Notes under the pieces: generated by a model
Database searches by the model: none
What the model saw: only the letters and a program-made list of their open reading frames with translations
Told to the model about the DNA's origin: nothing
Made by a program: the position numbers and the translations under genes
Source: Methanomassiliicoccaceae archaeon
GTDB lineage: Archaea; Thermoplasmatota; Thermoplasmata; Methanomassiliicoccales; Methanomassiliicoccaceae
Assembly (NCBI GenBank): GCA_040776945.1
Contig: JAXGZN010000001.1
Location: 288,001 to 352,000, forward strand
DNA length: 64,000 bases
Reading direction: 5' to 3'
Part shown: in pieces, positions 6,418-21,933 of the stretch
Layout of the letters: every line of letters begins with the position of its first letter
Position numbering within the stretch: the first letter of the stretch is position 1

Positions 6418-7698
6418 ATGACCGGCACCTTGACAGTCGGCGAGAGGATCATACTTCACCTGGCCCAGTACTCTAAGCACATCGACAGCTACGACGCCCC
6501 CATGGATGTCAGCCAGGACGGCATCGCCGCCGCTCTGAGGATCTCGAGGGCCCACGCTGCCATAGAGCTTAAGAAGCTCAAGGACGGCGGAGAGGTCCTG
6601 GAGAAGTTGGTCCATATCAAGAGAGGCAAGACCAAGCGAAAGGTCTACTTCCTGATGCCTCTGGGAGAGGAGCGGGCTGCGCAGATAAGGAAGTTCGCGG
6701 AGAGCGAAGGGATTGACATAGAGCCGTTCCTGGACATCAAGAAGTGCAAGGGACCAGAGCTTTGGTCGGCGTTGGATGACCAGAACAAGTCTGTTCTGGC
6801 CCAGGCCTGTGTGTTCAGGAGACCATTTCCCCGCGATGTTCTTCCCGGGACATCGATCTCCCTTCTCCCGGTAAATGCCGACGGCATGGTCGACATGCCG
6901 TCAGATCTCCGGACCTATATCCCCTCACAGGTCGATCCCGAGCTGCTGAGGCAGTACCACTCTCAGGCTGCCGACCATTGGCTTTCCGTGGGAGAGTATC
7001 GTGAGAGGCTGCACCACTTGCTAAAGGCGGGGCGCTTGTGGGAAGCGGAGGCCATGGTCGCGTCCCGGGGCATAGCGTCCTTAGGCACGGCGGACCGTGA
7101 GCTCCTGGAGATGTTGATGTCTCTGGACAATGCAACAGAACGCTATCGAGGCCGCCTGGTCCATGCCCAAGCCGAGGTGGCCAGGAGGGCCGGTGACCTG
7201 GACCTGGCGATAAGGAAGGCCGTTGAGCTGAGATCGTCGGCCGACCCTGCCGACAGGCTGAACGGCCTGATCGTCGAGGCCTTGGTGCGAAGGGGCAGGG
7301 GCGATGCCGACGGCTCGCTATCACTGTTGCTAGCGGCTAGCGAGAACACACGGGGCGAGGACGTAAGGATCGAGTGCGAGATCGCCGAATCCCTCATCCA
7401 GTCCGGACGATATCAGGAGGCGAGGGGGACGCTGGACCGCATAATAGCTCTTGGCAAGGCGGACGGCGATCAGCTCGAGAGGATATTCTTTCTGCTTGGG
7501 ACGGTATCACTTCGCACGGGGGACGGTGCCAGCGCGGTCCGCTTCTTTAGCAAGTGCAGGGGAACTGCAAGGAACAAGGAGGACTGCGAGCTTTATCTGC
7601 GACTCTCGGATGCCTATGGCCTCATGGGATTGACGGATAAGGCCGATGAGTACGCAGTTCGGGCCAAGAAGGTCCAGATGCCTCGAGTAACGATGTAA
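6418..7698 (+). CDS. N-terminal winged-helix plus TPR-like helical repeat protein (putative regulator)
   Basis: SQDGIAAALRISRAHAAIELKKL...KRKVYFL wHTH. C-terminal TPR-like helices (GRYQEARGTL, FFLLGTVSLRTGDGASAVRFF, LSDAYGLMGLTDKADEY). Confidence 0.75.
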   Translation: MTGTLTVGERIILHLAQYSKHIDSYDAPMDVSQDGIAAALRISRAHAAIELKKLKDGGEVLEKLVHIKRGKTKRKVYFLMPLGEERAAQIRKFAESEGIDIEPFLDIKKCKGPELWSALDDQNKSVLAQACVFRRPFPRDVLPGTSISLLPVNADGMVDMPSDLRTYIPSQVDPELLRQYHSQAADHWLSVGEYRERLHHLLKAGRLWEAEAMVASRGIASLGTADRELLEMLMSLDNATERYRGRLVHAQAEVARRAGDLDLAIRKAVELRSSADPADRLNGLIVEALVRRGRGDADGSLSLLLAASENTRGEDVRIECEIAESLIQSGRYQEARGTLDRIIALGKADGDQLERIFFLLGTVSLRTGDGASAVRFFSKCRGTARNKEDCELYLRLSDAYGLMGLTDKADEYAVRAKKVQMPRVTM

Positions 7699-8281
7699 CG
7701 GCTGAGTGGTGTCCGGACGTCGGGTTCGCGCTTGATGGGCCATGGTTGGGAGCGTTCCACGCCCCATCGCTGATGGCCGATGGACGAATTATCTTCATGG
7801 TCCACATTGTACGAGGTTACAGGGCCATCCTACGGTCCCGTCGATATCTGCCGGTAGAGCATCGATTCCGCTCTGAGGATCTCGATGGTCCACGGCCTTG
7901 GGCTGAAGGTGCTTGAAGGTACCAAGGGCACAGCGGAGAGGCTTTTCCGCAACGAGGACCGAGGTTCCGGGTGCAATGCCATATCGGCGAATCGCTCATC
8001 CGCAAGGGCGACCTTCATTGTGTTAGAGATATCCAGAAGCACCTGCTCCGCCGAGGGTTCGTATATAGGAAGGAGATGCCGCCATCCGCTGTTCGCTGGG
8101 CCGAATCGCTCTCGTGGGCAGGAGGGCGATCAGGGGTTTGACGTCTTTATCTCGAGCTATCGAGCTGCGAGCAGCGAACGGCAAGGTCTCTGCATCGACG
8201 CGCTCGGCACGCACCGCATAAACGTCGACCGAATCGTCGACCGGCTGAACTTCATGGAATATGCGCTTAAGGCAAGCATCT

Positions 8282-9802
8282 TCAAATCAACGGAGAGGTC
8301 CTTAGCATGTCCACGTCGCTGATGTATAGGTCCCTGAGGTCCTTCAGATCGAACCTCAGCATTGCCAGGCGCTCGAAGCCGAGGCCCCATGCCAGCACCG
8401 GGTGCTTTATGCCGAACGGAGCGGTGACCTCGGGTCGGAATATGCCTGAACCGCCGAGCTCCATCCATGAGCCCTTGAACCGGACCTCTATCTCCATGGA
8501 CGGTTCGGTGTACGGGAAATATCCTGGACGGAACCGTATGTCCTTGAAGCCCATGCGGGAATAGAACTCCCGGATGATGCCGCAAAGCATGTCGAAGGAG
8601 GCCCCCTCCTCCATTATGATCCCTTCTATCTGAGTGAACTCAGGCAGGTGGGTCGCGTCGATGGCTTCCTTGCGGAAGACCTTGCTAAGAGAGAACACCT
8701 TCACCGGAGGCTCGGGGTTCTTCCACAGGTGACGGATCGAGTTGACGGTAGTGTGCGTTCGGAGCAGGGCCCGTTCCGATTCCTCTCGGCACCAGTTGTA
8801 CCTCCATCCCATGGAACCAGTCCCTCCGCCGCACTCGTGCATGGAGCAGACCTTTCCCACGATGTCCTCGTCCTCAAGGTCTATTCGCGCCGGCCGCTTT
8901 AAATAGAAGGTGTCCTGCAGCTCCCTGGCAGGATGGTCCTGAGGGGTGAACAGTGCATCCATGTTCCAGAAGGCCGGCTGGACGTATTCCTCGTCGATCT
9001 CCTGGAACCCCATGTCCACGAAGATCCTGCGCACCTCGTCGGCGACCCGGGTCAAGGGATGCTTCTTTCCAGGATAAATTGCCGGAGCGAAGCTGCGGAC
9101 GTCATATTTTCGGATGGTGACGTCCTTCCACTTACCGCTCTGGATAAGCTCCGGGGTTAGCTGGGCAAGCTCCTCTCGGACCTCGATCCCCTGTTCCAGC
9201 ATCTCCCTGCCAAGTTCGGTCAGCTCGAGCGTGCGGGTCACTACAAGCTTCTCTACCACAAGGTCCTGCCGGGACTTCAATGCGGTTATTGTCTTCTTGT
9301 CGAGATCGTCCTCGGATATGTCTCCCTTGCTGAGCGCATCGAGGGTCGCCTCGTCCTCCATCTTCCTGTCGAGCATTTCCTGCCCAGTATTGGTGATGGT
9401 GATCGTGGTGCTCCCGCCCTCCTTGCGGATGGTAGCGAGGTCCTTTTTCCTCAGCCACCCCAGCGCGATGGACGCCTCTTCCTTGGTCACCGTCGAGTAG
9501 AGGTCCTTCATGTCCATCTCCCCACCCTTCGCCTCGAGCAGTCTGAGGGCCCGGCGCTCCGGCAACCCTTTCTCTAGGGCCTCTGTGGACCTGAGGGAGT
9601 AGACTTTCCTTGCCACCTCGTAGATCTGCAGCGCACCCTTGGATTGCAGCCAGGACGCTGCGTTCATGACCTCCACCAGCTGGCTGAAACCTCCGGCCTC
9701 GAATACATCCTCCGGTGCAGCACAGCCGTTGAGTCGGTGCAATGCCAGCATCAGGCGGGCTTCGTTGGGGGATAGTCCCTCGATTATCTCCGAGGCGCTC
9801 AT
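8282..9802 (-). CDS. pheS: Phenylalanyl-tRNA synthetase alpha subunit (long archaeal type)
   Basis: GKKHP, FWNMDALFTPQDHPARELQDTFY, LLRTHTT, DATHLPEFTQIEG, YFPYTEPS, GSGIFRPE, AWGLGFERLAM. Confidence 0.97.
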   Translation of the reverse strand: MSASEIIEGLSPNEARLMLALHRLNGCAAPEDVFEAGGFSQLVEVMNAASWLQSKGALQIYEVARKVYSLRSTEALEKGLPERRALRLLEAKGGEMDMKDLYSTVTKEEASIALGWLRKKDLATIRKEGGSTTITITNTGQEMLDRKMEDEATLDALSKGDISEDDLDKKTITALKSRQDLVVEKLVVTRTLELTELGREMLEQGIEVREELAQLTPELIQSGKWKDVTIRKYDVRSFAPAIYPGKKHPLTRVADEVRRIFVDMGFQEIDEEYVQPAFWNMDALFTPQDHPARELQDTFYLKRPARIDLEDEDIVGKVCSMHECGGGTGSMGWRYNWCREESERALLRTHTTVNSIRHLWKNPEPPVKVFSLSKVFRKEAIDATHLPEFTQIEGIIMEEGASFDMLCGIIREFYSRMGFKDIRFRPGYFPYTEPSMEIEVRFKGSWMELGGSGIFRPEVTAPFGIKHPVLAWGLGFERLAMLRFDLKDLRDLYISDVDMLRTSPLI

Positions 9803-12114: not shown

Positions 12115-12594
12115 CTAGGATAGGAAGGTCCGTGGCCCTACGCTTTCGTTCCCGCATTGTCGCAGCGCCTCATTGACTGCCCTCATCAGGTCCTGCGTCC
12201 GGTATGGGCGATCGAGATAGCCGACTATGCCATGGCAGCATTGCGAAGGGAACGTGGTCCCTCCCAATGTGGCAGTGGATATCAGCACCTTGACCTGGGG
12301 GTCTATCTCCTGAAGCATGACGATCAAGGTACCTCCTCCCAGCTCTAACGGATGGTATACGCCAAGGATGACAAGATCATAACGACGGCCGGCAAGCAAT
12401 GCTCGCTTGTACCTGTCCACCAGCTCTCCGCGGGCCCGAACAGAATCCGCCTCCATGCCCAGCCCTCTGAGCATCTCCCTGGTGACCTCGCGTACGTTCT
12501 CATCATCATCGGCCACGAGAACCCTTGGGGACCTTATCTCCATGCCTTCCATGAATGCCTCCTCGTCCTCGATAGTTGGAGGACGGGGTCTCAA
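12115..12594 (-). CDS. Stand-alone response-regulator receiver domain, degenerate (pseudo-receiver)
   Basis: VLVADDDENVRE..., YDLVILG (phosphoacceptor Asp replaced by Gly), YLDRPY (conserved Lys replaced by Arg). Confidence 0.75.
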   Translation of the reverse strand: MRPRPPTIEDEEAFMEGMEIRSPRVLVADDDENVREVTREMLRGLGMEADSVRARGELVDRYKRALLAGRRYDLVILGVYHPLELGGGTLIVMLQEIDPQVKVLISTATLGGTTFPSQCCHGIVGYLDRPYRTQDLMRAVNEALRQCGNESVGPRTFLS

Positions 12595-12660
12595 AACAAT
12601 CGGACTATCTGCAACCTACGCTTGAAAAACGCGGGAGCATGTCTTAAAACCAACTGGTCA

Positions 12661-12708
12661 GCAATCATTACTGATATTATATGTAATTTTATATATTACA
12701 AATATTTA
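12661..12708 (+). promoter_or_regulatory. AT-rich divergent promoter region with inverted repeat TGTAAT-N7-ATTACA
   Basis: TGTAAT at 12682-12687 and ATTACA at 12695-12700 flank a TTTTATATA TATA-like box, upstream of the E1 gene. Confidence 0.55.
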
Positions 12709-12733
12709 CCTCTGGGCAGCCCTAGGCGATAAT

Positions 12734-13525
12734 ATGACGGTCATACGCCCGGAAGATAGTGACAAGGACCGATGGGGGCGGTCCAGGCTTATCGATTGGC
12801 TGGATATCGAACAGGTGCAGTCAGCACGGTACCTTGTCCTGGGAGCGGGAGCGCTGGGCAACGAGACAATCAAGGGCCTTGTTCTGTCCGGGGCAAGGGA
12901 CATAACCTTGGTGGACATGGACCATGTGGTCCGTTCCAATCTTAGCCGGTGCGTGATGTTCCGCGAGAAGGATGGTGCTGAGAGGCGATGGAAGGCCGAG
13001 GCCGTTGCCGAGCGGGCCATAGAGATCGATCCGGGAGCACGTGTCAGGCCAGTGGTGGGGAGGATCGAGCAGTTGTCAGACGACGAATGGAAGACCTACG
13101 ACGTCGTGCTTGGTTGCCTTGACAACATAGCTGCTAGATTGCATGCGAACTCTCATTCTTACTTTAATGGGGTCCCTTACATCGACGGCGGCACAGAAGG
13201 TGTGGCCGGGCGAGTGCAGACCATAGTGCCACCATTTTCACCGTGCCTGCAGTGCGGCCTCAACCGCAGTCATTACCGCGTGCTGGAGAGACGCCATTCC
13301 TGCACTGGATCAGAACTGACCTACTATCGCCCTGCCATGGCCGCTGAGATCACCACAACCTCGATCATCGCCGCCGTTCAGGTGCTTGAGGCGCTGAAGT
13401 TGGTTTGCGGCAGGTACGATGCCGTGATCAGGAACGTGATGCACTATAACGGACTGAGGAACAGTTGGGACGAACTGGAGTTGTCCATTGAGCCGGCTTG
13501 TCCATTGCATATAAAGACTTCTTAA
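12734..13525 (+). CDS. Ubiquitin-activating enzyme E1 (ThiF/MoeB/Uba family)
   Basis: GAGALG nucleotide motif, VDMDHVVRSNLSR, GCLDNIAAR, IDGGTEG, PCLQC Zn site, putative catalytic Cys190 (HSCT), C-terminal CPLH. Confidence 0.93.
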   Translation: MTVIRPEDSDKDRWGRSRLIDWLDIEQVQSARYLVLGAGALGNETIKGLVLSGARDITLVDMDHVVRSNLSRCVMFREKDGAERRWKAEAVAERAIEIDPGARVRPVVGRIEQLSDDEWKTYDVVLGCLDNIAARLHANSHSYFNGVPYIDGGTEGVAGRVQTIVPPFSPCLQCGLNRSHYRVLERRHSCTGSELTYYRPAMAAEITTTSIIAAVQVLEALKLVCGRYDAVIRNVMHYNGLRNSWDELELSIEPACPLHIKTS

Positions 13526-13596
13526 CACAGTATCAGAATAATTACATGAAGGCATTACCTTTATCGTGAGTAATTAATCATTAAAATTCGATTAAT
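13526..13596 (+). promoter_or_regulatory. AT-rich intergenic region, probable internal promoter for the Ubl-E2-JAMM genes
   Basis: 71 nt, very AT-rich (TAATTAATCATTAAAATTCGATTAAT) directly before the Ubl ATG. Confidence 0.45.
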
Positions 13597-13854
13597 ATGC
13601 CCATCAGGGTAAAGGTCAGAAATGCTGAGACGGGCTCTACCGTCGACATGGAAATGGAGAACGAGAATACCATGGATGAGATCGTGCGGGGCGCTGCCAG
13701 TTTTTGGAACAAGAATCCCGGCGCCTATGTTCTCAGGCGCGGGAAGAGATTGCTGCGCGGATCGCAGACGGTTCTCGAGGTAGGCCTCAAGGACGCGGAT
13801 GAACTGGAACTGATCCCGGACCCCGAAGGTGGATATCGTGCCCCTCCCCAATGA
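13597..13854 (+). CDS. Ubiquitin-like (beta-grasp) protein with di-glycine and 6-aa C-terminal propeptide
   Basis: 85 aa with a beta-grasp pattern (IRVKVRN..TVDMEM..TMDEIV..GKRLL..TVLEVGLKDADELELI). Ends PDPEGG-YRAPPQ. Lies between E1 and E2. Confidence 0.85.
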   Translation: MPIRVKVRNAETGSTVDMEMENENTMDEIVRGAASFWNKNPGAYVLRRGKRLLRGSQTVLEVGLKDADELELIPDPEGGYRAPPQ

Positions 13855-14347
13855 TATTTTGATCGCCAGGCTCAGGAACGAGCTGAAGGCCATCGCCGGC
13901 TATGTCCGGATCGCCCCCGACCTCAGTGACCCTGAGCAGGTGGCGTTCCCTATATGCATAGAGATAGAACTGAACCGCATACCGGCCCACTATGTCGAAG
14001 GCGGCAAGCAAGGAGTCAGGTACTCCCACCGGTTCAGGATGCTTATCGGAAGGGAGTATCCGTACAAGAAGCCAGTCGTAAAGTGGCTGACGCCCATTTT
14101 CCATCCCAACATAATGATGCCCGAAGATGGCGGCCAGGTCTGCACAAGGCTTTTGGAGGATTGGAACTTCAACTCCACTATCATATCGTTCATTAAGGGC
14201 ATGGAGACCTTGATCACGAACCCCAATCCCTCCAGTCCCTTTGGGACGGACAGCTGTACCTCGGCGGCAGAGTACCACAACAAAGGTCCGAGGGTCCTGC
14301 CCCCGTTGGTCCAGGTGCCTCTGCCCCGGGTGGTGAGCCACGGGTGA
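13838..14347 (+). CDS. Ubiquitin-conjugating enzyme E2 (UBC fold)
   Basis: ARLRNEL helix 1, EYPYKKPVVKWLTPIFHPNI, GQVC catalytic Cys, LLEDW, LITNPNPSSP. Track start is 13829; GTG 13838 has an AGGTGG RBS. Confidence 0.92.
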   Translation: MPLPNDILIARLRNELKAIAGYVRIAPDLSDPEQVAFPICIEIELNRIPAHYVEGGKQGVRYSHRFRMLIGREYPYKKPVVKWLTPIFHPNIMMPEDGGQVCTRLLEDWNFNSTIISFIKGMETLITNPNPSSPFGTDSCTSAAEYHNKGPRVLPPLVQVPLPRVVSHG

Positions 14348-15051
14348 GAGGGCCTTCGATCGTGGCCGACCAACAGGCCAATATTAGGGACCTCCCCCCG
14401 CCGGCCCGTGAAAGGACCAGGGCGCACAAGTGGCTTAGCGAGAGGCGGCTGGCAGAGTTCAAGGCAAAGGAAAAGGAGGGCATAGAGCTCTACCTTTCCA
14501 AGCTGGCCGAGGAGAAGATACGCAACCATGCTTTGGCCCATGTCAGGGATCGGAGGGAGGTCATGGGCCTGCTCCTAGGAGGGATCTACCGCCACGACGG
14601 AACCGAATATGCTCTAGTAAGGGATGTGGCCACGACCGATCTGGACGCGACCGACGTCAGCGTAAGGTTCGATCCCCGGGCCTTCGAGAAGCTATTTGTC
14701 CAACTGGATGAGATAGGCTTTCGGTACATAATCGTAGGGTGGTACCACTCCCACCCTTCGTACCATTGTTTTATGTCCTCTACCGATGTGCAGACCCAGC
14801 GAACCTTATTCAACCTCAGGGCGCACTCGGCGCTGGTCATCGATCCGGTGAACAAGGAGATCGAAGCCTTCTTCCTTGACGATGGCAGGGTCCGTTCCCG
14901 CCCTTTCGCCGTGTTCTGGGACCAATTTCAGAGCCCATACTATGGCACATCGGTGCGCATGAGGCAGACCGAGGTCATAGTGAGCGGAGAGATGCTGGAA
15001 CCAGATGACGCCGGCAACGAAGAGCGATCGGGTCTGCGGAATGATGCTTGA
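14344..15051 (+). CDS. JAMM/MPN+ metalloprotease (Rpn11/CSN5-like deubiquitinase)
   Basis: EVMGLLLG, IVGWYHSHPSYHCFMSSTDVQTQ (HxH-x7-S-x2-D), ALVIDP. GTGA overlap with the E2 stop. Confidence 0.93.
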   Translation: MRGPSIVADQQANIRDLPPPARERTRAHKWLSERRLAEFKAKEKEGIELYLSKLAEEKIRNHALAHVRDRREVMGLLLGGIYRHDGTEYALVRDVATTDLDATDVSVRFDPRAFEKLFVQLDEIGFRYIIVGWYHSHPSYHCFMSSTDVQTQRTLFNLRAHSALVIDPVNKEIEAFFLDDGRVRSRPFAVFWDQFQSPYYGTSVRMRQTEVIVSGEMLEPDDAGNEERSGLRNDA

Positions 15052-15073
15052 TCTCCCTGCCCGGGACTGTCGC

Positions 15074-15619
15074 TCAGACCCATATGGCGTGCCTGCGCCT
15101 TAGAGAGGCCTCATTCTGCTCGGTCCTTTCCATTATAAGTGGGATCATCGAATCGAACATGACCAGCGCTGCGTCCTCGAAGATCGTTCCGAGCGGCGCA
15201 AGCCTCTTCTTTTGATCGTCCTTGGTCTGTCCGACCTCCAGGATGATATTTGATGCATGGCCTAGCTTGGAGTTGGGGTTCGAGGTGACCGAGATCACCC
15301 GAGCTCCCACCCTGCGGACGATATTGGCCGTCTGAACTGCGGACATGGTCTCCCCCGTATTGGACACTATGACCACCAGGTCCCCCTCATCCACGAAAGG
15401 GGTGGTCATGTCGCCGACGAAGTGAACGTCGAATCCCATCTGGACCAGCCTGACGGCGAACGCCTGGCCTATCAGGCCGGACCGCCCTACCCCATAGATG
15501 AAGATCTTCTTGGCATCTATGAACTCCTCGATGGTCTGTTTGACGGCCTCAGGGTCCACGTTGGCCAACGCTTCCTTGACGTTCCTCATTATGTAATCCA
15601 AGGATTCTTTCATGGTCAC
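15074..15619 (-). CDS. hxlB: 6-phospho-3-hexuloisomerase (SIS domain)
   Basis: IFIYGVGRSGLIGQAFAVRL, VSNTGET, APLGTIFE. Confidence 0.85.
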   Translation of the reverse strand: MTMKESLDYIMRNVKEALANVDPEAVKQTIEEFIDAKKIFIYGVGRSGLIGQAFAVRLVQMGFDVHFVGDMTTPFVDEGDLVVIVSNTGETMSAVQTANIVRRVGARVISVTSNPNSKLGHASNIILEVGQTKDDQKKRLAPLGTIFEDAALVMFDSMIPLIMERTEQNEASLRRRHAIWV

Positions 15620-16860
15620 CGCTTCTTCTTGGCCGCGGCTGCCGGTCTGGAAGTGGGCTTGGCTGAGACGTTGGACTTGGTCTGGTTCTTCGAAGCGGTC
15701 TTCGACCTCTCGGAGGATTTGGGGGCCGCCTTCTTTTCGGCCTTGGGCCTGGACCGCGGGACCTCGCTCTCATCGACGCCCTCTATTTCCTCGACCAGGC
15801 CATCATAGTCAACCTCTTCCTCCTCTTCCTTGTCCTTCTCGGGCCTCTTGGCCTTGCTCTCCTTAGCCACCCGCTTGGTGAGGACCCGCTCGTAGATGAC
15901 CTTCATATACATGGCGTCGTGCTCGAGGAGCGGAGAGGACGAGATTATTGTTATGTTAGGGTTCTCCTCTGCGAGGTAATCGGCAAGAGGTTCGAACTTG
16001 AGATCGCCCTTCTTGATCGGGGTTATCCTCCGCTCATTCCCTCCCTCATGCTCCACGCCGGAAAAGTGGGTATAGAACTCACCGTCCACGTAATCCCGGA
16101 CCTTATCGAGCAGGGCCCCGAAATCAGAAGGATCGCGGAGGGAGCCGTTGTCACGGGCATGGGCATGGGCGAAGTTGATCACCGGGACCGTTCCCTTTAT
16201 CTGATCGCACATCTCCAAAACCTCATCGAGGGAGCCGAACACCTCCTGCCGGCCACTGGTCTCGAACCCCAAGAGAGGCTTGAGCTTGTTCTCCTCCCAC
16301 CACTCCATTATCGAGGAGATGTTATCTGTAATGTTCTTCTTGGCCTGCTTTTTGGTCTTGTCCGGTGCCAGGCCGAGATGGGTGATGACCATGTTTCCGT
16401 CCATCTGATCGGTCATTATACCTGCCCATCGGATGTTGTCCATGCATCTGGCTGTCAGCTCGGAATTGCTGGCCAGGTCCATGTAATATGGTGTGTGCAT
16501 GGACAGCTGGACATCCATCTCCTTCCCCATCTGCCCCAGTTCGCGGAGCTCTATGAAGTTCTGGGCCAATCCAGATGCCAGAGTGATCAGGGCGTCGTCC
16601 TCTCTGATCCTTTCGGTGGGCTTGGTGATCCTCACCTCCTTCTTGTTCTTCACCCTGACGATCTCCATTATGAGATCGCTCTCCACCTGCAAGGGGGTGA
16701 GCCCCACCTCCTCCTCGTCCGGAAAACGATCGAAGACGTTCACTCTGACCATCTGGACCTCCATTGCGTTCAGACCTAATCCATGTACGTCCTCGATGCC
16801 GTCCCTGAGGGTCCTGCCCTTACAGGAGAGTGGTATGCCTGCTGGACCAAAGCGGATCAT
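15616..16860 (-). CDS. Endonuclease IV / AP endonuclease family 2 TIM-barrel protein with charged C-terminal tail
   Basis: MIRFGPAGIP, SMHTPYYMDL, FETSGRQEVFGSLDE, NFAHAHAR, THFSGVEH, IISSSPLLEHDA. Acidic then Lys/Ser/Ala-rich tail. Confidence 0.85.
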   Translation of the reverse strand: MIRFGPAGIPLSCKGRTLRDGIEDVHGLGLNAMEVQMVRVNVFDRFPDEEEVGLTPLQVESDLIMEIVRVKNKKEVRITKPTERIREDDALITLASGLAQNFIELRELGQMGKEMDVQLSMHTPYYMDLASNSELTARCMDNIRWAGIMTDQMDGNMVITHLGLAPDKTKKQAKKNITDNISSIMEWWEENKLKPLLGFETSGRQEVFGSLDEVLEMCDQIKGTVPVINFAHAHARDNGSLRDPSDFGALLDKVRDYVDGEFYTHFSGVEHEGGNERRITPIKKGDLKFEPLADYLAEENPNITIISSSPLLEHDAMYMKVIYERVLTKRVAKESKAKRPEKDKEEEEEVDYDGLVEEIEGVDESEVPRSRPKAEKKAAPKSSERSKTASKNQTKSNVSAKPTSRPAAAAKKKR

Positions 16861-17046: not shown

Positions 17047-20000
17047 ATGAGCACTCTGTCAGCGGACACCATAGACGTACGTATCGAAAGATGGAGGAAG
17101 AGCCTGGTGGACACCAGTCTCCGCAATCGGCTGCTGGACGTAAAGGAGAGCCGCCTGGGATGCCTAAGGCTTACCAGTCCGTCGCCCCAGGACATCTGTG
17201 GAGCCCTGGTCGCTTTGAAAGGCACGCTCTTCGTCGAGATCGGCCCAAACGGTTCAGCCTCCTTTTTCTCCCAAGAAGGCCTGTCGCCCCAAAGATCGGC
17301 GGAAGCTCCCAAGGGCGACCGAACGCTTATGATGATGCGTACTAAGGCCCGGGAGGCCATGCGTGAGCAGGGGGTGAACATCCTGTTCCTAACCCTTGGG
17401 ACCCTGGAATGGTCGAGCGAGGGGACCCAGGGGCAGAGGGTCCAATCCCCGTTGGTCCTCGTTCCAGTGGAGATCGGGCGCTCCAGTCCTCTTGATCCCT
17501 ATACTCTGAAGGCCACAGGGGAGGCCATAGGCAATCCGACCCTGGCCCACAAGCTCCGGTCTGAGCTTGGCATCACCCTCCCGGTCCTGCCGGACGGCAC
17601 TCTTGAGCTATCGGCCTACCTTGACACCGTAGCCAATAGCGTCCAGCGTTTCGGTTGGAAGGTGAGCGACAGCTCTTACCTTGGGTTGTTCAAGTTCCCC
17701 AAGATGTGCATGTTCGATGAGCTTGGACAGTACCGGGCAGCAGCGGCCGCTCACCCGGTCATCAGGGCATTGGCAGGGGAGACGGCGAACCTTCAGGCTG
17801 CAACCATCAAGAGCGCCGATGACGGCGTTGACCTGAAGGTACTGGATGCTGACTCCAGTCAGATTGAGGCGATCTCTCTCGCCTTGAGCGGCTCGAGCTT
17901 CGTGCTCCAAGGCCCTCCGGGCACCGGGAAGAGCCAGACCATCACCAACATCATCGCCGAGTCCATCTCCCGGGGACTCACTGTGCTCTTCGTCTCGGAG
18001 AAGATGGCCGCCCTGGAGGTGGTCAAGAAGCGGCTGGACGGTCGAGGTCTGGGAGATTTTTGCTTGGAGCTGCATGACCATGACGGCAGCCGGCAGGCGG
18101 TGGTCGAAGAGCTCTCTCGATGCGTCTTCATGCCTCCCTCCATGGAACAGCCTCTTACAGAAAGAGAGGAACTTGACCATGCCAGATCATATCTGGACGG
18201 TTATGTAGATGCCCTGCACCAGCAGCGCGATGGGATCGGGATCTCGTTCCGCGAACTGCTCTCCGAGCTTGCAGCTCTGCGATCGGCCCCTGATATTTCG
18301 ATGGGCTTCCCAAACCTTGGGCGACTGAGCTGGCGGGAGCTCCCCCCTCTGCTCCCGCTGATCCGTGACCTTGAGAGGTACTCTGCGGTGCTGGCTGCTG
18401 GGACGGACCACCCCTGGTCGGACTGCCTGATCGATTCGTGGAAGCTCAGCTCTCAGACCGAGGTCGTGCACCGCTTGTCGGCCCTAAAACTGGCCAGTGC
18501 CAGGATGAGGGAGGCGGCGGAGCAGTTCTCCCGATCGCTGGACCTTGAGGCCCCGAGCAGCCTGAAAGAGGTTAATGAGATGATCTCCCATCTGCGCGAG
18601 GTAAACCTGACCGCCTACCCTGACGAGAGATGGCTGGAGTCGGACCCCGCGCCCTTGTTCAAGCTTCTCGATGAGACACGTTCTGCGTACCAGGAGCTGG
18701 GAGATCGGATGGCATGGCTCCGCCAGAAGTATCGAGAGGACGTGCTCGCATTGGACCTGCACTCAATGCAGACCAGGTTCGAGAACGACCACCGCGGACC
18801 CATCAGGCGAATGTTCAGCTTCAGCTATCGCCGTGACATGGGCACCCTGCGCAGCCTCAACAGGGCGGCCCGAAAGCTTAACTTCGAAACGGCCAAGGAA
18901 GAGATAGGGGAGATAGTCCGCATATCCCAGTCGATCACTGGCCTGCATGCGATGGAGACGGAATGCGGGGAACGCCTAGGGAAGCACTTCCAGGGAGAGA
19001 ACACCGAGTGGGAGAAGGTGCGGGCAGCGATAAGCTGGACCAAGGACTACTATGACCGCTACGGAACCCCTTCCTCCCCCGGCCTGGTTCGCCTGCTTTG
19101 TTCTGGACCTGAGGTCTTGGTCGGCCTAAAGACCAAGGTGGACGAACTTCAGGACGTGGCGATGCGCATGGAGGAGGCTGTATCTGCTATCACCGAGCGG
19201 TTCCTCATGAGCAGACTGACCGCCGGGCGCACGGTGCATGAGGTGTCCTTCAACGAATTGATCGACTGGGCCCAGGCCCATGTGGAGGCGACGCCCAGGT
19301 TCCAGGAATGGGCCGAGGCCACCCGCGTAAAGAGGGAAGCGGCCGAGAAGGGGTTGGGCGATCTTCTTGTAATGGCCACGCAAGGATCTTTGCCAGACCG
19401 AGGACTGTGGGATGGAGTGAGGAAACGTTACCTGGTCCTGTGGCATGACCTCATAATATCCCGGGACCGTCGCCTCAGGGACTTCGATGGCGAGGCCCAT
19501 GAGCGGACGATAGAAAGGTTCACAGAACTGGACCGCCGGTGCATCGACCAGTCGGCCGGGCGGGCAAGAGCCCTCCTGGAAGCTCGTCGAGCTTCGTTAT
19601 GCGACCTTTCCTCTCCGGAGATGGGGAGCGGACTTTGGGTCCTGAAGCATGAGGTCAGCCGAAAAAGGAACCTCCGACCGATCAGGGAACTCTTCTCACA
19701 GGCCAGCGAGCCGATACAGGCCCTCAAGCCCTGCCTGCTGATGAGCCCCTTATCCGTATCCACCTTCCTGGACCCGTCAAAGGTCAGTTTCGACCTTGTG
19801 ATCTTCGACGAGGCCTCGCAGGTGAGGCCGGAGGACGCCATCGGCTCGATCATGCGGGCCAAGCAGGTCATTGTGGTCGGGGACGGCAAGCAGCTGCCAC
19901 CCACCGACTTCTTCCGGGAGGTCACCGATGAGGAGGAGGACGTCCCTGACCTGGAGAGCATCCTCGACGAGTGTTCATCTGCGATGCCGCAGCACATGCT

Positions 20001-21933
20001 ACTGTGGCACTACCGCTCCAGGCACGAATCGCTGATCGCCTTCTCCAACCGCCGGTTCTACGGCGGGCGTCTGATGACCTTCCCATCCGCCGTGGCCGAC
20101 CGTGAAGGGTTGGGGGTCTCCTTCGTACACGTCCCCGATGGCATCTACGACCGAGCTCGCAGTAGGAGGAACGCGAGGGAGGCCGAAAGGACCGCGGAAC
20201 TGGTCATAGACCATGTCATGAACAGGCCTGGGGAGTCGCTCGGCGTCATAGCGTTCAGCGAGGCCCAACAGATGGCCATCATCGAAGAGCTGGAAAGGGC
20301 GAGCGCTTCCTGTCCCGAACTGAGCCTCCTTCTCAACGACGAGAGCGATGAGGGGTTCTTCGTCAAGAACCTCGAGAACGTGCAGGGGGACGAGCGGGAC
20401 GTCATGATCTTCTCCGTCGGTTACGGCCGCGACGCTCAGGGCCGCATGCACCAGAACTTCGGACCCCTGAACAAGGCGGGCGGAGAGCGCCGGCTGAACG
20501 TTGCAATAACGAGAGCGAGGATGCATGTGAAGCTGGTGGCGTCCATACTCCCTGAGGACGTTGAAGGCACCACTCCCGGAGCGGAGGCCCTTAGGGAGTA
20601 TATGGCCTATGCCATGGGTCAGGGGGCCGCTGCTCGTCAGGCGGTAAGCGAGGAGGAAGGGGACCATCTGTTGAAGGAGGTCCGGGCTTGGTTGGAATCC
20701 AGAGGATTGGTGGTGGTGGAGAGGGTAGGCCGCTCTCTAGCCCGGATCGATCTGGCTGTCGCCGACCGCAACCGTCCCGGCAACTACGTTCTGGGCATCA
20801 TTGCCGACGGCCCGTCATATGCAAGGGCAGGCAATGCCCGGGACCGGGAACGACTTAGACAGGAGGTGCTCACCGGTCTGGGATGGAGCCTGCACCGGGT
20901 CTGGTCCCAAGAATGGATACGGGACAGGGACCGCGAGGGAGAGCGTATCCTGGAAGCGCTCGACCGAGCCCGGGCCGTTGCGGCAGAGAGGGCGCTCAGG
21001 GAGCAGGGATCGGGCCCGAAGGCTGTTCTGACGGCTACCTTCTCAGGGATGTCCGGCGATGCCGGTTTGGCCGAGATGGTGACCTTGAGCGCTGGACCGG
21101 AAGAGGCGGACCCCGCAGCCGTTCCGATCCTGTCAACGGCGAAAGCGGAGGGAGGGGCGGCATGGAGCACGATCTCGCCCCCAGCCCTACCTACGTCCGT
21201 CATGGAACCCCTTGTGCCCATGGCCTTGCCCGTGGAAGTTCCCAAGGGGGTCGATGAGGAAAGGACCGCGTGCACGGACGAAGAAGGCGCGGTCTCACGT
21301 CCTGAGGTCCCGTCCCAGGAGGAGCGGGAACTGCGGCCAAGATACGTGAGGACCGACCTGGTGGGCCACCGCTCGCTGGTTTCATCCTATCGCAGCGATC
21401 CATCGAGGACGCTCATGGAGGCCATGGAGGCCGTGGTCCTTATCGAAGGCCCTGTGCATATTTCGGTGGTCAAGGATCGCATCAGGGACCTGGTTGCCGC
21501 ATCCACCGGAAAACGCCCGGGCAACATGGAAAAGGCCATGAAGCAAGCGACCGCGGCTCTGGAAAGGTACTCTAAGGTACGGGTGGAGGGCGAGTTCCTA
21601 TGGCCCGTGGACAAGGTCGATGTCGCTCCCCGTATGTGCGAGGATTTCCGGCGAAGCGTCGATCATGTTTGCGACATGGAAATGGAAGCTATGGTGTTGT
21701 CCTTGGTCCCTAATGACCGTCCGATCGACCTTCGCGAGCTGGTGAGCGGAGTGTCGGCTTTGCTCGGCTACAAGCGCCCTACGCCTGCGATAAGGAGCAG
21801 GGTGGAACATGCGGTGGACGTTCTCAGCGATAAGGATACGGTGGTCTCCGAAGATGAGATCGAGGCGCAGGACACTAAGGCCGGACAGCCTAAGAACGAT
21901 GAGGTCCCCGTCGCCGAGCAGGCCTGTCCATGA
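17047..21933 (+). CDS. DUF4011 / SF1 (Upf1-like) helicase / Vsr-like (MTES_1575-type) nuclease / DUF3320-like multidomain protein, copy 1
   Basis: WRKSLVDTSLRNRLL, DADSSQ, QGPPGTGKSQTITN, SEKMAAL, LMSPLSVS, FDEASQ, GDGKQLPP, HYRS, ENVQGDERD, RRLNVAITRAR, RIDLAV, LGWSLHRVWS. Confidence 0.9.
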   Translation: MSTLSADTIDVRIERWRKSLVDTSLRNRLLDVKESRLGCLRLTSPSPQDICGALVALKGTLFVEIGPNGSASFFSQEGLSPQRSAEAPKGDRTLMMMRTKAREAMREQGVNILFLTLGTLEWSSEGTQGQRVQSPLVLVPVEIGRSSPLDPYTLKATGEAIGNPTLAHKLRSELGITLPVLPDGTLELSAYLDTVANSVQRFGWKVSDSSYLGLFKFPKMCMFDELGQYRAAAAAHPVIRALAGETANLQAATIKSADDGVDLKVLDADSSQIEAISLALSGSSFVLQGPPGTGKSQTITNIIAESISRGLTVLFVSEKMAALEVVKKRLDGRGLGDFCLELHDHDGSRQAVVEELSRCVFMPPSMEQPLTEREELDHARSYLDGYVDALHQQRDGIGISFRELLSELAALRSAPDISMGFPNLGRLSWRELPPLLPLIRDLERYSAVLAAGTDHPWSDCLIDSWKLSSQTEVVHRLSALKLASARMREAAEQFSRSLDLEAPSSLKEVNEMISHLREVNLTAYPDERWLESDPAPLFKLLDETRSAYQELGDRMAWLRQKYREDVLALDLHSMQTRFENDHRGPIRRMFSFSYRRDMGTLRSLNRAARKLNFETAKEEIGEIVRISQSITGLHAMETECGERLGKHFQGENTEWEKVRAAISWTKDYYDRYGTPSSPGLVRLLCSGPEVLVGLKTKVDELQDVAMRMEEAVSAITERFLMSRLTAGRTVHEVSFNELIDWAQAHVEATPRFQEWAEATRVKREAAEKGLGDLLVMATQGSLPDRGLWDGVRKRYLVLWHDLIISRDRRLRDFDGEAHERTIERFTELDRRCIDQSAGRARALLEARRASLCDLSSPEMGSGLWVLKHEVSRKRNLRPIRELFSQASEPIQALKPCLLMSPLSVSTFLDPSKVSFDLVIFDEASQVRPEDAIGSIMRAKQVIVVGDGKQLPPTDFFREVTDEEEDVPDLESILDECSSAMPQHMLLWHYRSRHESLIAFSNRRFYGGRLMTFPSAVADREGLGVSFVHVPDGIYDRARSRRNAREAERTAELVIDHVMNRPGESLGVIAFSEAQQMAIIEELERASASCPELSLLLNDESDEGFFVKNLENVQGDERDVMIFSVGYGRDAQGRMHQNFGPLNKAGGERRLNVAITRARMHVKLVASILPEDVEGTTPGAEALREYMAYAMGQGAAARQAVSEEEGDHLLKEVRAWLESRGLVVVERVGRSLARIDLAVADRNRPGNYVLGIIADGPSYARAGNARDRERLRQEVLTGLGWSLHRVWSQEWIRDRDREGERILEALDRARAVAAERALREQGSGPKAVLTATFSGMSGDAGLAEMVTLSAGPEEADPAAVPILSTAKAEGGAAWSTISPPALPTSVMEPLVPMALPVEVPKGVDEERTACTDEEGAVSRPEVPSQEERELRPRYVRTDLVGHRSLVSSYRSDPSRTLMEAMEAVVLIEGPVHISVVKDRIRDLVAASTGKRPGNMEKAMKQATAALERYSKVRVEGEFLWPVDKVDVAPRMCEDFRRSVDHVCDMEMEAMVLSLVPNDRPIDLRELVSGVSALLGYKRPTPAIRSRVEHAVDVLSDKDTVVSEDEIEAQDTKAGQPKNDEVPVAEQACP
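19789..19898 (+). repeat. Near-identical tract shared with 24770-24879 (helicase motifs II-III)
   Basis: About 110 bp, with two mismatches seen by eye. Confidence 0.8.
20355..20543 (+). repeat. Near-identical tract shared with 25339-25527 (helicase motifs V-VI)
   Basis: About 189 bp, with only two mismatches seen by eye between the two helicase paralogs. Confidence 0.85.

Follow-up and report, generated by a model that had tools for sequence, protein, structure and literature searches.

Four genes at positions 12734-15051 of a 64,000-nucleotide window from a Methanomassiliicoccaceae archaeon encode a eukaryote-like protein-tagging system: an activating enzyme (E1), a ubiquitin-like modifier (Ubl), a conjugating enzyme (E2) and a JAMM metalloprotease. 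The window is the whole stretch of DNA that was analysed (G000:C1:288001-352000; contig JAXGZN010000001.1 of assembly GCA_040776945.1, positions 288,001 to 352,000) and belongs to a 2.17-Mb genome that is 99.8% complete. On the best explanation, the operon is a ubiquitin-type conjugation module that Methanomassiliicoccales and other Thermoplasmata have inherited vertically and that serves the cell, not defence; this reading is given a probability of about 0.7. That its four genes form a working conjugation and deconjugation cascade is rated higher than the assignment of a ligase (E3), for which an unlinked RING-like zinc-ribbon protein is the candidate. Gene content, folds, invariant catalytic residues, fixed synteny, loss as a block and shared distribution with the RING-like gene carry the argument.

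The basic description given in the original prediction stands. All four genes are co-oriented open reading frames (ORFs) on the + strand, and the last three overlap: Ubl and E2 by 26 nt (17 nt if E2 starts later), E2 and JAMM by 4 nt. Every motif it quoted was found again, namely GAGALG, SNLSR, PCLQC and HSCT in E1, PDPEGG followed by YRAPPQ in the Ubl, YPYKKPVVKWLTPIFHPNI...GQVC...NPNPSSP in E2, and EVMGLLLG and VGWYHSHP..CFMSSTDVQTQ in the JAMM protein. Profile searches bear out its family assignments, with ThiF, UQ_con and JAB each above the Pfam cut-off, and the presumed methanogen host does encode McrA.

The activating enzyme

The E1 gene (12734-13525, +) encodes a 263-residue, ThiF/MoeB-sized Ubl-activating enzyme that scores 159.2 bits on Pfam ThiF (cut-off 28.1). 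In PDB it scores highest against two eukaryotic proteins, in their active adenylation domains: Uba1 (84.1 bits) and UBA3 (82.7 bits), ahead of MoeB/ThiF (60 bits); this lead concerns the nucleotide-binding (Rossmann) half of the protein. E1 also aligns end to end with the 249-residue MoeB (residues 13-257 against 11-245), and its length and ends are MoeB/ThiF-like. No NCBIfam equivalog cut-off is reached, the sub-threshold matches being to ThiF, MoeB and UbaA (UbaA 74.3, cut-off 450).

The protein has a GAGALGNE nucleotide loop, a single CxxC (C171, C174) and a C-terminal C256-P-x-H259; C171/C174 and C256/H259 together form a putative zinc site. Cys190 in the crossover loop (codon 13301-13303, +; motif R-x-S-C-T-G), singled out from the beginning as the candidate thioester-forming residue, is invariant in 24/24 aligned E1 sequences and would be the catalytic cysteine. 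About 25 residues run from the CxxC to the next helix, and the chain ends four residues past C256/H259. A separate Cys domain and a ubiquitin-fold domain (UFD) at the C-terminus are both absent.

The genome encodes a second ThiF/MoeB-type E1, of the canonical two-CxxC kind, on another contig (C2:474448-475140, 215 bits), so the operon E1 is not needed for sulfur relay.

The ubiquitin-like modifier

The pro-Ubl gene (13597-13854, +) encodes an 85-residue beta-grasp modifier that stays below the cut-off of the Pfam ubiquitin model (PF00240, 16.4 bits against 25.4). Its fold is clearer than its sequence score. The AlphaFold2 model (predicted local distance difference test, pLDDT, 90.1) shows the order beta-beta-alpha-beta-beta-(alpha)-beta, and the best Foldseek matches are SUMO1, Caldiarchaeum ubiquitin (6fj7, template modelling score 0.81/0.85, 22% identity), ISG15 and ubiquitin. 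Model and fold search thus agree on the beta-grasp structure, the point on which the prediction had been made to depend beforehand. A profile of the Ubl family searched against PDB returns solely ubiquitin entries at the top of its list; the strong E-values come from many-repeat polyubiquitin chains, and single domains score weakly, at 16-19 bits.

The chain ends, as had been noticed, in GG plus an extension: PDPEGG is followed by the six residues YRAPPQ (codons 13834-13851, +). PDPEGG is invariant in 29/29 Ubls, of which 19 end exactly at GG and the others carry 1-9 extra residues. The mature Ubl is predicted to end at Gly79 (Gly78-Gly79 codons 13828-13833, +), YRAPPQ being removed before activation. 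A GG motif with a variable tail fits JAMM-dependent maturation, as in Caldiarchaeum and Bil. On target proteins, digestion with trypsin would yield a remnant of 14 residues, DADELELIPDPEGG, and not di-Gly, so that standard diGly proteomics would fail to detect these targets.

None of the other three proteins is as conserved as the Ubl, which has a median identity of 63% over 78 loci. The Ubl family is small: 131 representatives at E<=1e-3 and 47 at E<=1e-10 among 1.84 billion. An ESM Atlas search with the Ubl finds Thermoplasmatota clusters together with generic beta-grasp families (YukD, TmoB). Natural Ubl-E2 fusions, in which the E2 begins right after GG, tie the two proteins together (P0139, 249 residues, UQ_con 47.4 bits; P0171, 255 residues, 73 bits); each is known from one or two short metagenome contigs. 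Metagenome proteins related to the Ubl take other forms as well, with Ubl-FHA fusions without GG and a tandem di-Ubl followed by a membrane segment (P0134/P0144/P0150, P0137).

The conjugating enzyme

The E2 gene (13829-14347, +) encodes a UBC-fold protein that scores 51 bits on Pfam UQ_con (PF00179, cut-off 27). Searched against PDB, it finds 245 different sequences with E<=0.01, the best at 44.7 bits, and the best 60 of these 245 are all eukaryotic ubiquitin, NEDD8, SUMO or ISG15 E2s. Cys105 (codon 14141-14143, +), proposed earlier as the candidate active-site cysteine, is invariant in 24/24 sequences, as are H92-P93-N94, W112 and P132-N133, and it aligns with the catalytic cysteine of eukaryotic E2s in HMMER alignments. 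A three-residue insert between HPN and the cysteine marks the family (HPNIMxPED; here HPNIMMPEDGG). Some proteins of relatives are already labelled "ubiquitin-conjugating enzyme E2" in NCBI records, and a 2023 preprint, in the portion of its text that is accessible, has a Thermoplasmatota E2 clade branching deep among archaeal E2s.

The start codon affects the numbering. The first GTG (13829), which would give 172 residues, falls inside the Gly78-Gly79 codons of the Ubl. GTG 13838, which would give 169 residues beginning MPLPNDIL, is the more likely start because it matches the N-termini of relatives and the 169-residue entry P0001; the catalytic cysteine would then be C102. Many relatives have the stop codon of the Ubl directly against the start of E2.

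The JAMM protease

The last gene (14344-15051, +) encodes a 235-residue JAMM/MPN+ metalloprotease (Pfam JAB/MPN 51 bits, cut-off 22.5). Its closeness to Rpn11 and CSN5, first read from motifs, is seen in sequence scores and fold matches alike. In PDB it matches yeast Rpn11 at 60.5 bits, the Caldiarchaeum Rpn11 homologue at 48.7, CSN5 at 45.9 and AMSH/BRCC36 at about 23, and the best Foldseek matches of the AlphaFold2 model (pLDDT 83.5) are Rpn11 (34% identity), CSN5 and CsRpn11 (31%). E72, H135, H137, S145 and D148 are invariant in 27/27 sequences. An N-terminal extension of about 50 residues (PPP..R...HKW) is conserved and confidently modelled, and the tail is disordered. The protein scores 36 on the NCBIfam desampylase model, whose cut-off is 130. 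It is the only PF01398 match in the genome, which has no Rpn8-type partner for it. Processing of the pro-Ubl and deconjugation are its predicted roles.

Conserved synteny, distribution and loss

The operon occupies a fixed place in the chromosome. In 20/20 loci fetched from relatives, E1-Ubl-E2-JAMM stands between tryptophanyl-/phenylalanyl-tRNA synthetase (TrpRS/PheRS) genes and SIS/AP-endonuclease genes, and all four genes are co-oriented and in the same order in 67/80 GTDB species-level loci. Among the remaining 13, a contig or locus end truncates seven, Ubl-E2-JAMM stands without a nearby E1 in five, and one has only a tandem E2 pair. Median identities are 54% for E1, 52% for E2 and 52% for JAMM, next to 61% for the SIS, 66% for the AP-endonuclease and 64% for the PheRS neighbour; the conservation of the operon is similar to that of its housekeeping neighbours.

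The E2 is found in 29/41 relatives, including 10/10 of the same genus, and in 11/15 genera. Across the class, UQ_con is above cut-off in 119/301 sampled genomes and 42/90 genera, with 0 matches in 14 control genomes, and within this sample most families either have E2 throughout or lack it altogether. Four genomes without E2 from the family of this archaeon (G023, G014, G017, G012) have TrpRS directly after SIS, at a distance of 93-750 bp; the operon was therefore lost as one block. Fixed synteny, family-wide presence and the lack of a defence-model match for E2 and the Ubl argue for a vertical cellular function and against a Bil/CBASS-type island.

Some loci and genomes show further variation. 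Two loci (L045, L047) carry an insertion of 2.5-4 kb between E1 and Ubl, and in L111 the two tandem E2 genes are present and the other three operon genes are not there. In Thermoplasmata outside the Methanomassiliicoccales (L091, L100, L113 and L118 at about 7200-8400, and about 11 similar loci), a co-oriented gene lies between JAMM and SIS, whose product has about 380-400 residues, hydrophobic segments at both ends and numerous N-x-S/T sites. Genomes of genus g26 in family f9 (G063, G091, G082, G042, G072; 2.3-5.2 Mb) carry 1-4 UQ_con E2 genes, the best at 78-84 bits, and may represent an expanded ubiquitin toolkit within Thermoplasmata.

A candidate ligase outside the operon

The system was first described as lacking an E3. 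This holds for the window, and neither the operon nor its surroundings contain a gene of the RING or HECT kind: in the 20/20 and 67/80 loci mentioned above, the four genes have no further gene among them or next to them, and a RING consensus pattern has 0 matches in 100 operon loci scanned. Genome-wide, PF13639, PF12906, PF00097 and PF14447 (RING, RINGv, C3HC4 and Prok-RING_4) give nothing above cut-off, and HECT and U-box have no match. The description probably does not extend to the genome as a whole. The candidate E3 is a 236-residue RING-like zinc-ribbon protein encoded about 200 kb upstream of the operon, outside the window (G000:C1:100348-101058; L014:1339-2049, L128:4349-5059). It combines a RING-like finger at the N-terminus with four zinc ribbons that score as significant (DZR 50.9 bits).

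A strict RING regular expression passes over this protein because of its unusual ligand spacing; the sub-threshold PF13639 match revealed it. The only strict match in the genome, at C2:838706-838945 in a 540-residue open frame with C-x2-C-G repeats, was rejected, as it looks like a zinc-ribbon repeat and not a RING. In relatives, the ligands of the candidate's finger follow C-x-I-C-x12-C-x(5-6)-F-H-x2-C-x6-C-P-x-C, and more distant members of the order have a full eight-ligand C4HC3 finger, C-x2-C-x12-C-x-C-x4-H-x2-C-x6-C-x2-C. A 16-row finger profile (A6) searched against PDB finds the Arkadia RING at E 2.8e-5, and its first 23 matches are all RING E3s; RNF24, ARK2C, RLIM, RNF165, synoviolin, EL5, ZNRF3 and RNF38 are further matches. 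Taken singly at E<=1, 16/16 finger members match zf-RING_2 (best 5.1e-6) and 15/16 match Prok-RING_1. Prokaryotic RING fingers were reportedly treated by Burroughs, Iyer and Aravind in 2011.

The distribution of the gene follows that of the operon. Among the 41 relatives, 29 carry both E2 and the RING-like gene, one carries the RING-like gene only, none carries E2 only and 11 carry neither, and in genus g5 the same three of six genomes carry both. Among the 50 order-level genomes within the class-wide sample, both are present in 29 (E<=1e-4), three more E2-positive genomes have a RING match at 1.1-1.8e-4, and 18 have neither. The suggestion of a self-contained, possibly E3-independent system loses ground here, since the RING-like gene tracks E2 in 40/41 relatives and the finger profile matches RING-H2 ligases.

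The gene order at the candidate's locus is HdrA-like (opposite strand), a small ORF, the RING-zinc-ribbon gene, FtsZ, proteasome alpha, SBDS, Rrp4 and Rrp41, with the RING-FtsZ adjacency kept in 18/19 relatives. In the E2-less genomes G014 and G017, the HdrA-like, FtsZ and PsmA genes stay and the RING-like gene is gone. The single genome with a RING-like gene but without a detected E2 (G040, 93% complete; G040:C23:8851-9090) has an in-frame TAG in that gene; the gene may be decaying, or members of the order may translate TAG as pyrrolysine.

RING-type proteins also stand next to E2 genes in other Thermoplasmata. In family f19, a 1461-residue protein divergently adjoins a UQ_con E2 in 3/3 loci (L164:9561-14998, L165, L166); it carries a C-terminal Prok-RING_1 (34.8 bits, cut-off 29.1) plus zinc ribbons, the E2 is longer (228-236 residues), and no E1, Ubl or JAMM gene is found nearby in these loci by tblastn. 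In family f9, proteins of about 700 residues with a near-cut-off RING_2 match (21-26 bits) are encoded 1.5-2.2 kb from E2 in 3/5 genomes. The odds that the unlinked RING-like zinc-ribbon protein is the E3 of the system are put at about even or somewhat better.

Proposed mechanism

In the proposed mechanism, the JAMM protease would trim the 85-residue pro-Ubl after Gly79. The MoeB-sized E1 would then adenylate Gly79 and probably load the Ubl onto Cys190, from which it would be handed on to Cys105 of the UBC-type E2. The E2 would conjugate the Ubl to target lysines, most likely aided by the unlinked RING-like zinc-ribbon protein as E3, and the same JAMM would take the tag off. Each of these chemical steps is inferred.

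The genome also encodes degradation machinery, namely the 20S subunits alpha and beta, an orthologue of PAN (585.7 bits, cut-off 500) and three Cdc48-like double-AAA proteins, and a link of the tag to the proteasome is possible. A more far-reaching version of the proposal regards the complete five-part set of E1, E2, RING-E3, Ubl and deubiquitinase (DUB) as an ancient housekeeping trait that Thermoplasmata, cultivable gut-associated methanogens among them, have handed down vertically, with the E3 gene kept beside ftsZ and proteasome alpha because the tag acts in a control of cell division or protein quality that is coupled to the proteasome or PAN. This version is tentative and rather doubtful. 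If it were true, E2/E3-type signalling would not be special to the Asgard/TACK line, and would either predate the split or have spread very early among archaea.

Several observations weigh against the proposed mechanism, most of them against its ligase. The finger of this genome is weak alone (zf-RING_2, PF13639: 16 bits in six-frame translation, 10.3 in hmmscan, cut-off 27.3), its fourth zinc ligand (C-x-C) is missing in this genus, and the gene is unlinked to the operon. Class-wide the RING profile is unspecific: it matches 182/301 genomes, including families without UQ_con (f29, 21/23), and E2 is tracked only by the Methanomassiliicoccales orthologue group of these matches. Related genomes are not independent, and the co-absences perhaps amount to about four to six events, counted as genera g3 and g20, parts of g5 and g12, and two incomplete genomes. 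Of the 18 E2-less order-level genomes, two were re-searched for RING at E<=0.5 and gave noise only, the rest being covered at the stricter threshold. As for the cascade itself, E1 has neither the Cys domain nor the E2-recruiting UBL/UFD reported for the Caldiarchaeum E1; a predicted complex of two E1 chains, Ubl(1-79) and E2 scores 0.19 against a mark of 0.32 and has no bearing, in either direction, on how E1 docks to E2. Five loci of other Thermoplasmata (L107, L110, L112, L115, L116) have Ubl-E2-JAMM without an E1 within 3.4-5.7 kb upstream.

Alternative explanations

The operon could also work on its own, the E2 itself picking targets without any E3, as proposed for bacterial BilB and as observed in direct transfer of the UBC9 type. 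The genome and operon loci without a RING, HECT or U-box match above cut-off are consistent with this, as are the gain and loss of the four genes as one block and the degenerate finger of the RING-like protein, one ligand short in this genus. There is precedent too: in the cited papers, referred to here and below in the partial text that is accessible, Caldiarchaeum E1 and E2 auto-modify without E3 (PMC5654768) and Bil systems function without one (PMC10557695). An E3-independent system is nevertheless unlikely. It leaves without explanation that the RING-like gene has the distribution of the operon in 40/41 relatives and is gone from its locus in both E2-less genomes checked, that the finger profile is homologous to RING-H2 ligases, and that E2 and RING genes adjoin in two other Thermoplasmata lineages. 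A different use of the same four genes is antiviral defence of the Bil or CBASS-Cap2/Cap3 kind, with phage or host proteins tagged on infection, which the original prediction had kept as an option. The gene set E1, E2, Ubl and JAB equals BilABCD; E1 has partial PADLOC matches to Cap2-type E1-E2 proteins (54.2 bits, residues 14-135 only); and a 1628-residue helicase-like protein (17047-21933, +), 2 kb downstream, scores 1290 bits on PDC-S37, a candidate defence model of PADLOC, and 521 bits on Hhe. Two housekeeping genes, conserved and in the opposite orientation, stand between this helicase and the operon. No PADLOC family matches E2 or the Ubl, its BilD match reaches 17.6 bits over residues 37-142 only, and its matches to the JAMM protein are partial and generic. 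Moreover, the E2 belongs to the eukaryotic UBC family PF00179 and not to the BilB/CEHH type, and the E1 is a single 263-residue domain without the inactive adenylation domain and mobile Cys domain of BilD. Against CBASS, E1 and E2 are separate genes, and no cGAS-like nucleotidyltransferase neighbour occurs in the loci inspected. With a constant position amid aminoacyl-tRNA synthetase and sugar-phosphate genes throughout the order and outside it, family-wide and not strain-variable presence, and normal base composition, a defence role is very improbable. Of the original prediction, the absence of an E3 and the antiviral option are the weakest points.

Most archaeal Ubl systems are of the E1-only type, and the size and end-to-end architecture of the operon E1, like its sub-threshold NCBIfam matches, recall MoeB and ThiF. 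The Ubl might accordingly be a sulfur carrier (MoaD/ThiS/SAMP/Urm1-like) that forms a thiocarboxylate for cofactor or tRNA thiolation, with conjugation at most a side activity. Such a role is hard to reconcile with an intact UBC E2 (invariant HPN/Cys) and an Rpn11-like DUB that are always co-encoded, with a Ubl whose nearest folds are SUMO and ubiquitin and not MoaD/ThiS, or with an E1 whose Rossmann half scores higher with Uba1/UBA3 than with MoeB. E1 has no rhodanese domain, the genome has its separate two-CxxC MoeB/ThiF-type E1, and the inspected loci show no MoaE, ThiG or NcsA-type gene at the flanks of the operon. The remark that sulfur-relay genes are not adjacent agrees with the genes directly next to the operon, which encode a response regulator, SIS and a TIM barrel of the AP-endonuclease type. 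A sulfur carrier is highly unlikely, and the cellular conjugation module is retained as the preferred reading.

Genomic setting and expression

Upstream of the operon and divergent from E1 lies a stand-alone response-regulator receiver gene (12115-12594, -). It was considered as a member of the system and rejected, being found only in the closest relatives, at 37-67% identity. Genes for TrpRS and PheRS-alpha lie further upstream in the window. Downstream and convergent with the operon are the SIS gene (15074-15619) and the AP-endonuclease-2/TIM-barrel gene (15616-16860), both assigned by Pfam. The PDC-S37/Hhe-like helicase gene is syntenic beside AP-endonuclease in several relatives and absent or different in others. 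The proportion of G+C in the operon is 0.546-0.571, inside the range of the window and without anomaly.

The 139-nt gap between the response-regulator gene and E1 contains an AT-rich, TATA-like stretch, TTTTATATAT (12687-12696, +), about 40 nt upstream of the E1 start, which by its letters is a possible archaeal promoter element. Metatranscriptome contigs with 100% identity, from three runs of three studies, cover Ubl-E2-JAMM in one piece (13605-15265, 13602-15273 and 13607-14847), and shorter RNA-library contigs cover E1. The stretch is thus present in RNA libraries, which falls short of proving a single transcript, as DNA carry-over is possible. The parts uncovered by RNA contigs, 12533-12748 and 13498-13601, match the intergenic gaps. 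The RNA contigs of runs X1, X2 and X6 all start 5-10 nt past the Ubl start codon (13602-13607), and the stretch between E1 and Ubl (13526-13596) is rich in A and T. As a lead only, there may be a second promoter and a leaderless Ubl-E2-JAMM message.

Significance

A eukaryote-style tagging system is present here well outside the archaea closest to eukaryotes. To our knowledge, archaeal E1-E2-E3 ubiquitylation has been characterised only with proteins of the uncultured Caldiarchaeum, and it is discussed mainly for Asgard archaea. The same E1-E2-E3 logic, in a stripped-down form, appears to run across an order of methanogens. Methanomassiliicoccales include strains in pure culture, e.g. Methanomassiliicoccus luminyensis. 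A protein of this operon from M. luminyensis is already cited in the accessible text of Fort et al. (2015, PMC4453063).

A growable host makes several questions testable: how a UFD-less, MoeB-sized E1 passes its Ubl to a UBC E2, whether a RING finger with a missing ligand acts as an E3, and what purpose a prokaryotic ubiquitin system serves. Natural "knock-outs" could serve as comparison strains, as sister genomes of one genus exist without the operon (four checked) and without the RING gene (two checked).

Comparison with known systems

The ubiquitylation operon of Caldiarchaeum subterraneum was reportedly described by Nunoura in 2011. Operons of this organism (Aigarchaeota) and of Asgard archaea encode ubiquitin, an E1-like protein, an E2-like protein, a small RING finger protein and an Rpn11 homologue (PMC5654768; PMC6043591, both in part). 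The Caldiarchaeum Rpn11 homologue cleaves a nine-residue pro-peptide, and the Caldiarchaeum E1 has a Cys domain of about 60 residues and a C-terminal UBL domain (PMC5654768). The operon studied here shares with these systems a precursor beta-grasp modifier with a short tail past GG, a UBC E2 with HPN and Cys, an Rpn11-like JAMM and the clustering in an operon, and a RING-type partner probably exists. It differs from Caldiarchaeum in its E1, which is a bare 263-residue adenylation domain without Cys domain and C-terminal UBL. The JAMM gene is co-oriented and inside the operon, whereas that of Caldiarchaeum is juxtaposed in the opposite orientation (PMC5654768). The RING-like gene lies 200 kb off, beside ftsZ and psmA, and its finger is fused to four zinc ribbons; the host belongs to a euryarchaeal methanogen order, and the Ubl is beyond the reach of the Pfam ubiquitin model.

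Bacterial Bil systems offer a second parallel. In BilABCD, the DUB pre-processes the Ubl, the E1 has no UFD and builds a zinc site from crossover-loop and C-terminal ligands (Chambers et al. 2023, a preprint, PMC10557695), BilD carries an inactive adenylation domain at its N-terminus together with a mobile Cys domain, and BilB is a CEHH-type E2 without the C-terminal UBC helices (PMC10557695, in the text accessible). The two systems have in common a four-gene set of E1, E2, Ubl and JAB without an operon-encoded E3, and the E1 here is likewise without UFD, its putative zinc site having ligands from the crossover loop and C-terminus. They differ in that the E1 here is a single domain, the E2 is canonical PF00179 and the genomic behaviour is housekeeping-like, not island-like.

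Archaeal E1-only sampylation (SAMP/UbaA/JAMM1) also brings together a small E1 that resembles MoeB and has a cysteine in the crossover loop, a beta-grasp modifier ending in GG and a reversing JAMM. Here, in contrast, a conserved E2 is present, the JAMM is nearer to Rpn11/CSN5, and the scores on the UbaA and desampylase models are far below cut-off. Eukaryotic cascades provide the best solved structures for E1 (Uba1, UBA3), E2 (UBC2/Rad6, UBC12, UBC9) and JAMM (Rpn11, CSN5), and the finger profile of the candidate E3 matches their RING-H2 ligases. Unlike them, the archaeal system has one gene per kind, an E1 without FCCH, SCCH and UFD, and no Rpn8-type partner, and identities are about 20-35%.

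The literature holds only passing mentions, and the lineage was fairly called not well described. Fuchs et al. (2018) define "JAMM-3" prokaryotic JAMMs as nearer to Rpn11/CSN5 and encoded in operons with ubiquitin, E1 and E2 but no E3, in an accessible text that names no organisms (PMC6043591). Fort et al. (2015), in the part available, regard an M. luminyensis MPN protein and the Caldiarchaeum one as Rpn11 orthologues outside the desampylase groups (PMC4453063). The JAMM described here fits both the JAMM-3 description and the placement by Fort et al. with Rpn11/Rpn8, and neither text, as far as accessible, gives the content of this operon, its distribution, the Ubl or the E3 candidate. A literature search for Methanomassiliicoccales and Thermoplasmata found no operon-level description, distribution survey, Ubl description, biochemistry or E3 candidate, although supplements (Hennell James 2017, Fig. 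1 "Cluster III"; Fuchs 2018) may hold more; Grau-Bove 2015 and a 2024 review contain no occurrence of Methanomassiliicoccus or Thermoplasmat*. The system is not categorically new, because its existence is partly anticipated in print; it is a new minimal variant of the archaeal eukaryote-like systems, with a bare E1, a DUB inside the operon and an unlinked, putative RING-zinc-ribbon partner.

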